64,000 bases of DNA from a phage, in sequence record PZ445447.1; one strand, 5' to 3'. Below, in pieces: positions 8,744 to 12,880 of the stretch (positions within the stretch are counted from its first letter, which is position 1; each line of letters opens with the position of its first letter). The translations under genes and the position numbers were made by a program. Below the pieces are notes generated by a model. The model had not been told where the DNA came from, searched no databases, and saw nothing but the letters and a program-made list of their open reading frames with translations.

Positions 8744-9035
8744 AAACATCACCCCCGCAGGGTTCTTAAAAGTATACCGTGAACTGCTATATACTACAGA
8801 GGACAGTGTTCTAGAGTATCCAGAATATCTTTTGCTGTATAAGTATCTGCAGGAGGCTGGTGAAAATCTGCCAGTTAGTGCAGAAGGTGGTCCGAACTGG
8901 ATATACAGCGCATGGAGAAAGGTTGACATTCTCCCCGACCCAGGTAAAGATATGGTAGTTTGGCAGCTTATTAACAACATCGGGATTCCAATCTTTGATG
9001 AAGCTGTTAAAATCTATTTTGAACTTGACGATTAA
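8733..9035 (+). CDS. hypothetical protein
   Basis: ATG after GGAGAA RBS, overlaps upstream stop. Confidence 0.55.
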   Translation: MKTENITPAGFLKVYRELLYTTEDSVLEYPEYLLLYKYLQEAGENLPVSAEGGPNWIYSAWRKVDILPDPGKDMVVWQLINNIGIPIFDEAVKIYFELDD

Positions 9036-9052
9036 TATCAGGAGACCTTAAG

Positions 9053-9298
9053 ATGACTGAAGTAGTTGCTCGCGCAGGACAGAAAGTACGTTGTGTTGAA
9101 GTAGGTTTTGGTGGCAAAGGGTGTCAAAACTTGACTCAAGGTAAGGAATACGCTGTTATTTCTGGTGGTGGCGACGAAAGTATTGTGTTCGAGGGCCACA
9201 TCCTGGATGCTGAAAACTTTGAAATCTTTGACGACGATGGGGATCCGATCACCTGCCTGCTGGACGGGAATTGGGGAACTTTCGAAGTGATTGGCTAA
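9053..9298 (+). CDS. hypothetical protein
   Basis: CAGGAGA RBS; 81 aa. Confidence 0.6.
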   Translation: MTEVVARAGQKVRCVEVGFGGKGCQNLTQGKEYAVISGGGDESIVFEGHILDAENFEIFDDDGDPITCLLDGNWGTFEVIG

Positions 9299-9381
9299 CA
9301 AATACCTATTGTAATTTACAGAAGGGGATGCTAAAATAGTGTCTCCTTCTATGTTGTTCAAATAAAATCGGAGATTCCATA

Positions 9382-9747
9382 ATGGAACAAATGAACGATC
9401 AAGCGTCGGTTGCGATGAACGAGCAAGAACAACCTCAAGAATTTTTCTTAGGGTTAAGTAAAGATCAAGTGTCTCTTTTGCTAGTGCTTTCTTCTTTCAT
9501 GGGAAGACTTCAGGAGCTCACACAACAACCGGAGGCTGAACAATTATTTCAGGCTCTGCGTGAAGAAGAAAAATATCGTCGTTTGGACTATGCCTTAGGT
9601 TGGGTAGCTCAACAACGAGATATGCTGATGGCCCTCTCTGGGACCACAAGTTTTGCAATGGGCCTGTTGGCTCAAGTTCAGGACAAATTAATTCAAGCAG
9701 GGTTTGCACACACGGCAAACACTAACGAAGAACAAGGAGACAAATAA
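9382..9747 (+). CDS. hypothetical protein
   Basis: GGAGA RBS; 121 aa. Confidence 0.6.
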   Translation: MEQMNDQASVAMNEQEQPQEFFLGLSKDQVSLLLVLSSFMGRLQELTQQPEAEQLFQALREEEKYRRLDYALGWVAQQRDMLMALSGTTSFAMGLLAQVQDKLIQAGFAHTANTNEEQGDK

Positions 9748-11018
9748 TGAGCGTTATTCAACAATTCGCTAACCCGATGAATCCGCGTGAAACTGTTTTA
9801 CTGGCTCACGGCATGATTAAACGCGTCAGCATCAAGCCTATCAAAGGTGCTGATCCTACAACAGGTATTAAAACCACTGTGTGGCAAGGTAAGAAAATTG
9901 AGTCCAGCCACACCATCTCTTTACTGATTTCTGAACTGGATTCCTCTGATAACCTGCTTCAAGGTGGTGAAGAAGTCTGGATCAGCATGGGTGATAAACT
10001 GCTTAAACCGGGTCATCAAGACTCTGTCTCTGTTAAGATTGATGACAAGTGGGAAACCGTAACGCCAGGATGGATCGTAAATATCCCTTTGAAGGCAAAC
10101 GAGCATAACGGTAAGACCTACTACAAGGGCTCACTGGCTAAGATGGTTAAGCTGGGTGCAGGAGAGGCTCCAGCAGCGACTCAGCAGCAAAAACAGCAAC
10201 AAGGTGCACAATCACAAGGCCAGAAGCAGAAACCTCAGCAGAATGCCAATCAGGACGTTTTACGCATCTATGGCGATGTGACTCAGATTGTTGGCAACGT
10301 GGTTACTGTTAATGACCACAAGATTGGCGAAGGTGCTATGGTTGTCACTGATGAGCAGCTTAAAGACCTGGTGGTAGGTGGTCGTGTTGCAGCCATTGTT
10401 GACAAAGACACCGGAAACATTATCAGTGGTTTCAAAGCCTACCCACCTAAGGCAGAGAACGGCACTCAAGGCTCTGGTGGCAAGCGTAAATCCTCTTACG
10501 ACCCTATTGGTGTGGAGACGGGGCATAGCATCAATGCGTTGCAGATCATCCTGGATCGCGGGTTTAAGGTGGACGACCCACTAGGCGTGGCTAAAACACT
10601 GCACGTAGTCACCATTGAGCTTAAGAAAGAGTATGCTCAAGCCACCAACCGAACTGAAGATGAGGTAGGTGCCAGTGTCGGTAATGCGGTGTTGAACGCT
10701 TGTCGCCGTATTGACAAGAAAACGAAAGTTGATGATTTTGCAGTGGCAATTACTGCAGAAGCAAAAGATGTCTTGACTAATCTGGCTGAGCCGTTGTACG
10801 ATTGGATCAAGAACGGTGCTGGGTCCACTGACCATCAAGAACCTCAAGCTGCCAAACAGGAAGCTGCTTCACAGCAAAATACTGTAGACGCTCCTCCTGT
10901 AAATGACGAGGAAGATGACCCAATGGATCAGAATCCAGCACAGTATGACTTCTGTGATGACATACCTTTCGCTCCGGTGGGTTTGCAATATGGCAAAAGT
11001 AGAATCCACGCATTGTAA
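9747..11018 (+). CDS. putative single-stranded DNA-binding protein
   Basis: Q-rich flexible linker between two folded regions; acidic tail ending DFCDDIPF (bacterial SSB-tip-like) followed by 15 further residues; ATGA-coupled start. Confidence 0.5.
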
Positions 11019-11613
11019 GAGGTGCATCAAGTGTGGAGAGGTGAAAAACCTCTCCGAGTTCTACAAACATCCAAAGATGTCTGACGGTCATCTTAATAAG
11101 TGCAAAGAGTGTTGCAAGAAGGCCAGCAGGGAGGCTGACCAATTTTCCCACGACTCTTCAGAAAAAGGTGTGATCCGCGTGTTGTACAAGACTCAAAAGT
11201 GCAACAGTAAGAAGAGAGGTCACCCACCTCCGACTTACACCAAAAAAGAGTTTAAGGAGTGGCTATACCTAAACGGTTACAAAGAGTTGTATGATCAATG
11301 GGTAGCCAGCGGATACGACAAAAGGAAAAAGCCTTCTTGTGACAGGATAGATGATTTCAAAGGGTACTCTTTTGATAATATCCGTTTAACGACTTGGGGA
11401 GAAAATAAAGACAAGCAGACAGAGGATATTCTGTTACATAGAAGCACCAGCGGTAGACGGTGCAAAAATGTAAGGAGGTTGGACATGAATGGTAACGTTC
11501 TTAAAGAATGGGTATCCCACAATTCTTGCCGAAGAGAAACAGGGATATGTGTTGATTACTACATTCATGAAAAAATTCCAGCTCCCGATGGATACCTCTA
11601 TGAATACTTCTAA
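10990..11613 (+). CDS. putative HNH-type homing endonuclease
   Basis: N-terminal CxxC..CxxC zinc-binding segment; [18 protein letters not shown] motif; overlaps 3' end of SSB-like gene in another frame. Confidence 0.5.
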
Positions 11614-11628
11614 CATTTAGTTAACATA

Positions 11629-11656
11629 GCCCTGCCCGAAAGGGTGGGGCATTTTT
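11629..11656 (+). terminator. rho-independent terminator hairpin
   Basis: Same GCCCTGCCCGAAAGGGTGGGGC hairpin as 843-869, followed by T-run. Confidence 0.7.
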
Positions 11657-11675
11657 GTATAAGGAGATCTAAAAA

Positions 11676-12092
11676 ATGACATTAGAAGATATCATTGTTA
11701 AACCTGAGAACTATGACCAATACAACCTGTCAACTCAATCTGTAGACCTTGGATGCGCCACGGTCAGTGCGTGGCTGGTTAACGGAAAAGAGCTGGATAA
11801 ATGCTTAGAAGCTCACATGTCTATTAACAAGTTTCTGGATGAAAATACTCACTGGCTTGAGGGTGCAGGCGTATATGCTTCATGGTTGGAGAGTATGGGA
11901 TTCGACTACCAATCTGAAGAGGGGTGGTGGAGCTATTTAGCTATCTGCCCAGAGACGCTGCAATGCTTCATGAAATATTCTGAAGATTTGGAGTACCGGG
12001 CGGTGGTTGATAGTGCTATTGCCCGTTATAGCCGTAAACCTTTTTCCCACGACATTAAAACTGTGGAAGAATTTGTTGAAGTTTTCTGTTGA
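11676..12092 (+). CDS. hypothetical protein
   Basis: AAGGAGA RBS; 138 aa. Confidence 0.6.
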   Translation: MTLEDIIVKPENYDQYNLSTQSVDLGCATVSAWLVNGKELDKCLEAHMSINKFLDENTHWLEGAGVYASWLESMGFDYQSEEGWWSYLAICPETLQCFMKYSEDLEYRAVVDSAIARYSRKPFSHDIKTVEEFVEVFC

Positions 12093-12188
12093 CACAAGTT
12101 GAAAGGTGTGTAATTATAACTTCATAGAACGGGAGGACGTGATGAACGAAGAAAACTGGGATGTATAACTAACAGGAGGCCACTGCCC

Positions 12189-12386
12189 ATGATTTATAGA
12201 ATCCGTGTAAGAGAAGATGCACCAGGCTGTTACTTTGACTGGCGTGGGTGGTGGTTTCTCCACCCGATGGATGGACTCACAGATAGAATGCTGGATGCTG
12301 CCCTTTATACAGATACCGATATAGAATATAATCTCTATCTGAAGGACGGTATAGATAACGGCCTATTTGAAGCAATTCCTGTGTAA
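12189..12386 (+). CDS. hypothetical protein
   Basis: AGGAGG RBS; 65 aa. Confidence 0.55.
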   Translation: MIYRIRVREDAPGCYFDWRGWWFLHPMDGLTDRMLDAALYTDTDIEYNLYLKDGIDNGLFEAIPV

Positions 12387-12454
12387 GAAACTGTGATAGC
12401 CATGTTTTATGATCTTCCTGTAGCACCACCACCTGTTGAACCCGGAGAACTAAG

Positions 12455-12880
12455 ATGATCTATGAAATGCCAAAACTGATTCGTGATGATGCCCAAAACG
12501 CTCACACCATTATTATGGGCAAACGCATGGATATTATTTGTCATAAAGACTTCTGGGAAGGGAGTTACTTCACAGAGTATTTTGGTAAACTGGACAATGG
12601 TCTGCTGATCCAGTTCTACACCGATGCGGAAAACAACATTCACTGGGAGTTCGAAACTGAAGATATCCATAAACTTTTCACCTTCCTTGGTATTAAGGTT
12701 GAGGCCAAGTTTGAAGAAGGTGAGTGCGACGATTGTGGATTCTATGAGGTAACAGATTTCTACCTTCCAAGTGGTAAAAATCTCTACTACGAAAGCCATT
12801 TCGGCAACTCAAATATGCCACAGGGTTGGGATGAGTTTTTGGAAATTGCAGAAGAGGAGCTGGAATACCGTGATTATTGA
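12455..12880 (+). CDS. hypothetical protein
   Basis: GGAGAA RBS; 141 aa. Confidence 0.6.
   Translation: MIYEMPKLIRDDAQNAHTIIMGKRMDIICHKDFWEGSYFTEYFGKLDNGLLIQFYTDAENNIHWEFETEDIHKLFTFLGIKVEAKFEEGECDDCGFYEVTDFYLPSGKNLYYESHFGNSNMPQGWDEFLEIAEEELEYRDY

Follow-up and report, generated by a model that had tools for sequence, protein, structure and literature searches.

An SSB-like gene with an internal acidic tip

The DNA analysed here (the window) is a 64,000-nucleotide stretch of phage DNA, sequence record PZ445447.1, to which Escherichia phage MaxBurger (Bas54, genus Vequintavirus, rV5-like) is 100% identical. Within it, two overlapping genes and the short peptide encoded where they meet are of particular interest. 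[quoted passage not shown] All features of the window described here lie on its plus strand. The GenBank annotation of MaxBurger contains the same two genes and lists bas54_0088 as a 'putative homing endonuclease'. An earlier reading, made from the letters of the window alone (the sequence-only reading), had reported an internal DDIPF tip in the SSB-like protein, 15 extra codons after it and a 29-nt overlap with the endonuclease gene, and the open reading frames (ORFs) and the sequence confirm these coordinates.

Residues 1-408 of bas54_0087 align with the full length of phrog_4477 (profile positions 1-393 of 393, E = 6.7e-173), a family of 'unknown function' from Vequintavirinae and Stephanstirmvirinae, and the profile stops exactly at residue 408. 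The protein has no Pfam match at E <= 0.1, PF00436 included, and membership of PF00436 is not supported by its sequence. An AlphaFold2 (AF2) model built with 44 homologs predicts an oligonucleotide/oligosaccharide-binding (OB)-like barrel over residues 1-140, then a small barrel (171-232) and a bundle of four helices (253-355), with the tail (360-423) disordered. When PDB sequences were searched with a profile of bas54_0087, the only match was between the tail and the E. coli SSB C-terminus (1eqq, E = 0.0046). Most of this tail is a disordered, acidic, Gln/Pro-rich linker (residues 360-403, 10824..10955, pLDDT ~30) that leads to the acidic tip.

A 2026 preprint (bioRxiv 10.64898/2026.04.29.721553) independently describes the ortholog from phage RudolfGeigy, Bas52_0087, as SSB-like and notes its FDDDIPF tip. 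According to this preprint, Bas52_0087 is needed to trigger the DRT10 (UG17) defence system, host ExoI acts as a modulator, and DRT10 escape mutations are placed at a predicted oligomer interface; extended alleles are not mentioned. Bas52_0087 and bas54_0087 are identical at 403 of 408 positions (99%), and the escape positions D252 and Y351 are kept in the MaxBurger protein. Unlike the MaxBurger copy, which has both an extension and an endonuclease gene, Bas52_0087 ends at its tip (...FDDDIPF) and has no endonuclease behind it. The SSB-like identity given to the protein by the sequence-only reading is thus well supported by the predicted OB-fold N-terminal domain, the disordered acidic tail, the E. 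coli-type tip and the independent description of Bas52_0087.

The acidic tip, DDIPF, occupies residues 404-408 (10956..10970) and is internal in the MaxBurger allele. Because P407 and F408 are invariant in 44 aligned homologs, phrog_4477 ends at residue 408, and 10956-10970 holds the sole tip-like motif within the 64-kb window, DDIPF is judged not to be a chance motif. The position of the tip is the C-terminus in ~60 close relatives of MaxBurger. A canonical SSB C-terminal tip (SSB-Ct) has its Phe as the last residue, with a free alpha-carboxylate, whereas in MaxBurger 15 codons follow F408 (residues 409-423, 10971..11015) before the SSB-frame stop, a TAA at 11016-11018. This extension agrees at every position with the consensus of the 15-residue class of a conserved peptide family, described below.

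The two reading frames share 29 nt (10990..11018), with the endonuclease in the +1 frame. The endonuclease ATG at 10990 is made from the TAT-GGC (Tyr-Gly) codons of the extension; it is the sole in-frame ATG between the first zinc-ribbon cysteine and far-upstream ATGs, and homologs begin at the same place. A Shine-Dalgarno-like GGTGGG (10976..10981) lies 8 nt upstream of this ATG, within the Pro-Val-Gly codons of the extension, and is a candidate ribosome-binding site for the endonuclease.

A conserved peptide family beyond the tip

The peptide that follows the tip in MaxBurger belongs to a family defined by [AS]-P-[IVL]-G-L-Q-Y directly after IPF, followed by 7-9 residues of which the last before the stop is hydrophobic. 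Of the 71 complete homologs found in a similarity search with bas54_0087, 27 have the extension, each reading [AS][PY]xGLQY... at this position. A census with a degenerate DNA pattern for D-I-P-F-x3-G-L-Q-Y yields 56 viral contigs and, in bacterial genomes, ~12 genuine prophage-like loci, only one of which lies outside Gammaproteobacteria. These ~12 are the only real SSB tails among 61 pattern matches in the scanned genome collection, the others being chance matches or members of an unrelated Bacteroidota enzyme family. The latter are ~490-amino-acid enzymes from metagenome-assembled genomes of Bacteroidota and Planctomycetota (L074, L077, L080 and ~15 other loci) that carry an internal HLMDIPFRxLGLQYP matching the search pattern; this match is treated as coincidental, with no relation to SSB tails.

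Census and homology-derived loci together give 64 unique coding sequences of tip and extension, which fall into three length classes and two main groups. The 14-residue class reads AP[IV]GLQYPALL[NM]CM, and the 15-16-residue class reads AP[IV]GLQYG[KR]xx[IL][HY][AC][LI]. They are carried by true PF00436 SSBs as well as by members of at least four further N-terminal families, and they occur on at least five unrelated DNA-binding domains. Among annotated SSBs, tip and extension occur together in Salmonella phage epsilon34, Vibrio phages Val-yong3 and BT-1011, and Proteus phage vB_BPM-V3 (for example EU570103 27423-27488), so cultured model phages exist in which the peptide can be tested. A divergent 15-residue post-tip version, AYIGLSEGKQYIHVI, is found at L144, beside a distant member of the endonuclease clade described below.

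Most carriers of the extension have no endonuclease. The gene is absent beside 53 of the 64 unique extension sequences, and none of the 14-residue class has one (0/33, compared with 11/31 in the 15-16-residue class; Fisher p = 1e-4). Distant endonuclease-free orthologs that carry the extension include PVP-SE1, Mydo and GAP31 (Vequintavirinae), the phi92-like EC_OE_11 and the E. coli contig L070, and in all five a terminator or an unrelated gene comes directly after the stop of the extension. A closer relative (L067, 83% identity) keeps the extension intact beside an endonuclease that has decayed to a ~128-nt remnant. The 128 nt between extension stop and terminator in this contig (L067:3255-3382) still contain recognisable 5' (GGCTCATCAAGTGTG) and 3' (GATACTTCTATAAGTAC) ends of the endonuclease gene, a footprint of endonuclease decay or deletion. 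This remnant was seen by eye in the DNA; tblastn searches downstream of endonuclease-free extensions found no endonuclease remnants at E < 1e-3.

Substitution patterns in the extension separate the two reading frames. In the SSB frame, the proportion of synonymous differences per site (pS) is ~0.8, near saturation, and that of nonsynonymous differences (pN) is 0.22-0.40, giving pN/pS of 0.28-0.50. The same bases read in the +1 (endonuclease) frame give pN/pS of 0.84-0.98. Third positions of SSB-frame codons vary most, at 0.61-0.63 per site versus 0.18-0.24 at second positions, and the pN/pS pattern is alike in endonuclease-free and endonuclease-bearing sequences. Because synonymous sites in the SSB frame are near saturation while pN is low, and the +1 frame is close to neutral, these substitution rates identify the extension as a peptide under purifying selection in the SSB frame and not a by-product of the endonuclease 5' end. 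Taken together, the comparative data show that the extension is an older part of phage SSB tails that has been selected independently. No description of such a peptide was found in the literature on phage SSB C-terminal tips and extensions or on the rV5 homing endonuclease.

Possible resemblances of the peptide to known short motifs were also considered. QYPALL and QYGKSRI are a poor fit to the beta-clamp-binding consensus (QL[SD]LF or QLxLxL), and this candidate was set aside. Extensions ending in ..YAL or ..YALA may resemble a ClpX or ssrA-like C-terminal degron.

Allelic states at the Vequintavirus locus

Comparison of gene coordinates and junctions between MaxBurger and AlexBoehm reveals a single 640-bp presence/absence block (10971..11610) that comprises the extension and the endonuclease ORF minus its stop. 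The block is set between the Phe codon and the SSB TAA of block-free genomes, and the endonuclease stop TAA in MaxBurger is the SSB stop codon of those genomes. Because TTC precedes both ends, the boundary of the block can slide by 3 nt. MaxBurger, with the block, and AlexBoehm, without it, have in common an unusual Cys in the tip region (10950-10970), which reads DFCDDIPF where other alleles have DFDDDIPF or EFDDSIPF, and the gain or loss of the block is therefore younger than the Cys substitution.

Three states of the locus were counted in public phage records by junction-spanning searches with flanks at least 95% identical. Extension and overlapping endonuclease, as in MaxBurger and rV5, occur together in 32 records. 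Neither is present in 60 records, including AlexBoehm and RudolfGeigy, where the gene ends ...IPF-stop and is followed by the terminator. In the remaining state, represented by slur16 and HeinrichReichert (18 records), a TGA comes right after Phe and a variant endonuclease begins 8 nt downstream, so the locus can also hold an endonuclease that leaves the tip free. The variant of slur16 (L009:1487-2076) is ~88% identical to the MaxBurger endonuclease from residue 42 on and has a different, shorter zinc ribbon (MKCKRCGEDKEASDFY). With- and without-extension states recur in phi92/phAPEC8-like phages. This presence/absence polymorphism, confined to one locus between conserved flanking genes of close genomes, is what is expected of a freestanding homing endonuclease.

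Sixteen unannotated records labelled Campylobacter phage with C. jejuni as host (MG0656xx) share 95-97% identity with rV5-like phages of E. coli across window positions 9000-12500, and their host label looks doubtful.

An intrinsic terminator common to the SSB-like gene and the endonuclease lies at 11629..11650, with a 9-bp stem containing 7 GC pairs followed by a T run. The same terminator sequence stands directly after the SSB stop in the block-free genomes of AlexBoehm and RudolfGeigy. Promoter-like sites in the region are no commoner than in shuffled sequence.

An endonuclease clade at SSB 3' ends

Three parts make up the product of bas54_0088: a CxxC...CxxC zinc ribbon at the N-terminus (~residues 9-41), the KPSxDRxDD...NIxLxTW core in the middle and, at the C-terminus, a NUMOD-like part. 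The protein belongs to a family of ~200-amino-acid proteins for which 237 homologs were found. It has no Pfam match of its own, and no Pfam HNH model recognises it. It matches phrog_1035 'endonuclease VII' with E = 3e-41, and the C-terminal part of one homolog matches PF22083, I-HmuI NUMOD-like. The AF2 model (pLDDT 90.4) contains the beta-beta-alpha-metal core fold seen in its best PDB match, PacI (3ldy; probability 0.99, E = 5e-3, 22% identity over 164 columns), and in the next, Hpy99I (probability 0.91). PacI is likewise a zinc-ribbon-rich beta-beta-alpha-metal enzyme, but it is a restriction enzyme without an SSB-linked context, and with TM-scores of 0.31 and 0.44 only the core is comparable. 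The assignment of the neighbouring gene as HNH-type and homing-endonuclease-like in the sequence-only reading agrees with the phrog_1035 match, the NUMOD-like match of the homolog and the PacI-like predicted fold.

The genomic context of this endonuclease depends on how closely it is related to that of MaxBurger. Where the endonuclease on a viral contig is at least 43% identical to MaxBurger's, an SSB acidic tip closes the upstream gene at 13 of the 14 loci that could be evaluated; these represent at least nine distinct SSB contexts. The usual arrangement in this clade has a terminal tip with the endonuclease 4-82 nt downstream. More distant relatives have a tip upstream in none of 24 evaluable loci. 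Of three further contexts, two also have a tip upstream. These gene neighbourhoods show a clade that specialises in SSB 3' ends.

The 29-nt overlap seen in MaxBurger also occurs in ZCKP1, nieznany, morffagbaw, L051/52, L058, L063 and L068. In morffagbaw, ZCKP1, nieznany and several viral contigs, the same extension is overlapped by 29 nt by an endonuclease with the same zinc ribbon but a classical HNH catalytic domain, and a Sodalis prophage combines such a zinc-ribbon and classical HNH endonuclease with a 16-residue extension, giving a 32-nt overlap. The SSBs beside distant members of the clade carry short, unrelated post-tip additions: EIPF-NRG, EIPF-NEVQ and EIPF-S (L137:1350-1401, L143 and L147).

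The Tyr-Gly ATG within the extension is also used by a gene other than an endonuclease. In the viral contigs L040, L046 and L066, a 97-amino-acid non-nuclease gene (M[AE]KAESTHYLNAPPIPRTKEQ...) starts there, and in L051 and L052 a homolog of that gene sits after the endonuclease with a new start. Judging from these arrangements, a gene overlapping the SSB 3' end may have been there first, and the endonuclease may have captured its start and first nine codons.

Interpretation and alternative explanations

The explanation favoured here, with a probability of about 0.7, is that a conserved, selected and often endonuclease-free extension makes the tip internal, that an SSB-linked HNH endonuclease is nested in this extension, and that the two form one 640-bp block in Vequintavirus. 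Under this explanation, bas54_0087 is MaxBurger's copy of the Vequintavirus SSB-like protein, its tip made internal by the 15-codon extension, and the extension-linked form of the endonuclease has its start codon built within the Tyr-Gly codons of that extension. Because this start lies inside the extension and the SSB terminator lies downstream, the endonuclease would draw on the plentiful SSB transcript for its expression, probably with its translation coupled to that of the SSB gene. Within Vequintavirus, extension and endonuclease are gained or lost jointly as the 640-bp block. The combined unit may enter related SSB genes, tip-terminal alleles included, through homing or gene conversion and take the extension along; homing and cleavage by bas54_0088 are both predictions from its sequence and distribution. 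The extension itself may mask the terminal carboxylate and retune the partners of the tail while the protein stays functional.

Several observations weigh against parts of this explanation. The census pattern fixed the G-L-Q-Y codons, so that conservation at these positions is independent only in the homology-derived set (27/71). In the AF2 model, the extension does not dock on the domains of its own protein, and residues 360-423 have pLDDT ~30. The density of single-nucleotide polymorphisms beside the block is only mildly raised in the one genome pair compared (4-6 per 100 nt, versus ~0-3 within the gene), so that a co-conversion tract is at most a tentative reading of it. Endonuclease divergence between Vequintavirus groups (~75%) matches SSB divergence, and long residence therefore fits as well as repeated homing. 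The direction of change in Vequintavirus may be either gain of the block or its precise loss. Finally, all 121 aligned family members have an Arg, Arg119 in bas54_0088 (11344-11346, in KPSxDRxDD), at the position taken in canonical HNH enzymes by the catalytic His of the first strand, so nuclease activity cannot be assumed, and the catalytic chemistry of the family may be non-canonical.

The sequence-only reading proposed that a recent endonuclease insertion altered the SSB end. In such a model the insertion would have removed the SSB stop, and the 15 residues would be arbitrary read-through, neutral or mildly harmful. The joint absence of extension and endonuclease from the ~60 close relatives, the placement of the block exactly between Phe codon and stop, and the NRG, NEVQ and S additions on other endonuclease-adjacent SSBs, which resemble such accidents, would all fit. 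This scenario is nevertheless very improbable, as endonuclease-free orthologs at 26-41% identity and unrelated SSB families share the peptide, which is kept despite near-saturated synonymous sites (pN/pS 0.28-0.50) and outlasts endonuclease decay in L067; the saturated synonymous divergence also argues against endonuclease-free carriers being very recent deletion derivatives. Relatives without the endonuclease divide: the close ones end at IPF, which fits an insertion, whereas PVP-SE1, Mydo, GAP31, EC_OE_11 and L070 keep the extension. Orthologs of the latter kind had been named in that reading as counter-evidence to its own proposal, and they contradict the claim that an insertion altered the SSB end. 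Its observation was correct and its interpretation is partly supported, but the cause it gave is wrong: what makes the tip internal is a conserved post-tip peptide in which the endonuclease has become nested, and not the overlap of the endonuclease with the gene. It had also offered a regulated event yielding a shorter form, and programmed recoding at the tip would produce a 408-residue form beside the 423-residue one. Nothing beyond the expectation of a terminal tip speaks for such recoding. The ATA CCT TTC GCT junction contains no X XXY YYZ slippery heptamer, no alternative frame has a nearby stop (+1 is open into the endonuclease and +2 runs 11 codons before a stop), and junction RNA folds no better than shuffled sequence (z = -0.10). 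A programmed frameshift or early stop was rejected on these grounds, and recoding is the proposal to which we give the least credence. Scarcely more credible is conservation through nucleic-acid or overlapping-gene constraint, in which the ribosome-binding site, start, first nine codons or recognition site of the endonuclease, and not a function of the peptide, would preserve the extension. The Shine-Dalgarno-like sequence and ATG do lie inside the extension, and the other downstream gene of L040, L046 and L066 uses the same ATG. Against this stand the 53 of 64 unique extensions without an endonuclease, the 14-residue class that never has one, the excess of variation at SSB-frame third positions together with almost neutral evolution of the +1 frame, and the lack of overlapping conserved ORFs or RNA structures in most carriers.

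Two further proposals are more serious, although both are considered unlikely. The stronger of them reverses the polarity: the extension is ancestral, the endonuclease was inserted in place, and tip-terminal alleles are selected precise deletions, so that no co-transfer is needed. It is consistent with the presence of the extension in deep branches, Seunavirus, Mydovirus, Stephanstirmvirinae and Serratia phage Kashira, with the TAA at both ends of the endonuclease ORF proper, which fits insertion at the stop of the extension, and with the similar divergence of endonuclease and SSB between groups; selection would spare only in-frame, tip-restoring deletions. Tip-terminal alleles, however, dominate most branches at 58-76% identity, and the GKSRIHAL of MaxBurger is nearer to extensions on unrelated SSBs (L040, L011) than to the GRNFIHCI of PVP-SE1, which suggests horizontal movement of the tail end. 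Somewhat more doubtful is a removable pro-peptide, in which a host or phage protease cuts after Phe408 (IPF|AP) or trims the hydrophobic C-terminus and frees the tip, with selection keeping the processing signal. Such processing would account for the perfect retention of the tip in extension-bearing proteins, old lineages too, for the position of the most conserved part, AP[IV]GLQY, directly against the Phe, for the tolerance of either state by near-identical phages and for the disordered, accessible extension in the AF2 model. The extension, however, contains no recognised protease site of known specificity, and it is not obvious why a cleavage signal would need the conserved hydrophobic C-terminal half. 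Because the tip is perfectly conserved in old extension-bearing lineages, it still matters there. Either the cap is taken off post-translationally, or the capped tail functions without a terminal carboxylate. A functional cap that alters partner choice is favoured with low confidence, and processing is its main rival.

Implications for phage SSB tails

SSB tails are hubs that bring more than a dozen genome-maintenance proteins to single-stranded DNA, and the free C-terminal Phe is regarded as essential. ExoI, RecQ, PriA, the chi subunit, DnaG and others dock on the SSB-Ct of E. coli (...MDFDDDIPF), and structures and modelling of SSB-Ct complexes use the terminal carboxylate. Modelled contacts between DnaG and the SSB-Ct, for example, have been described (PMC5872125). 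The MaxBurger protein resembles E. coli SSB in its disordered Gln/Pro-rich linker ending in an acidic-IPF motif, with a tip that is invariant in the phage family, but its 15 residues after Phe would leave no free alpha-carboxylate at the tip, and its DNA-binding part is not PF00436. A comparable phage SSB is T7 gp2.5, which binds partners through an acidic tail with an aromatic residue at its end. Its terminal Phe, unlike that of the MaxBurger tip, is the true C-terminus, and no post-tip peptide is known in gp2.5.

The endonuclease likewise both resembles and departs from known systems. In common with freestanding homing endonucleases of the T4 seg/mob and I-HmuI type, bas54_0088 is a small nuclease gene between conserved genes, polymorphic among near-identical genomes, with a predicted HNH-like fold, a NUMOD-like C-terminal part and no evident promoter of its own, so that it would depend on the host-gene transcript. 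It differs from them in that its clade is tied to SSB 3' ends across unrelated phages, the extension-linked form overlaps the host gene by its first nine codons, the catalytic His is replaced by an invariant Arg, and both cleavage and homing are predicted. Its position behind SSB genes would make this clade a new instance of mobile genes that take advantage of a universally conserved coding motif.

The BASEL collection contains natural near-isogenic phages whose tip is free (Bas52, Bas56), capped (Bas54) or free and followed by an endonuclease (HeinrichReichert, WalterGehring), which makes the role of the terminal carboxylate in infection and immune sensing directly testable. A broader and, at present, doubtful extrapolation is that the extension is a general switch on phage SSB tails, spread by the endonuclease clade, that buries the terminal carboxylate, thereby blocks the binding of host partners such as ExoI or redirects the tail to another partner, and alters how the phage is sensed by defence systems that monitor SSB or ExoI, such as DRT10. 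More generally, these comparisons point to a widespread, selected class of phage SSBs that keeps a perfect tip yet caps it with a conserved peptide, which implies either an unknown processing step or a carboxylate-independent mode of binding.

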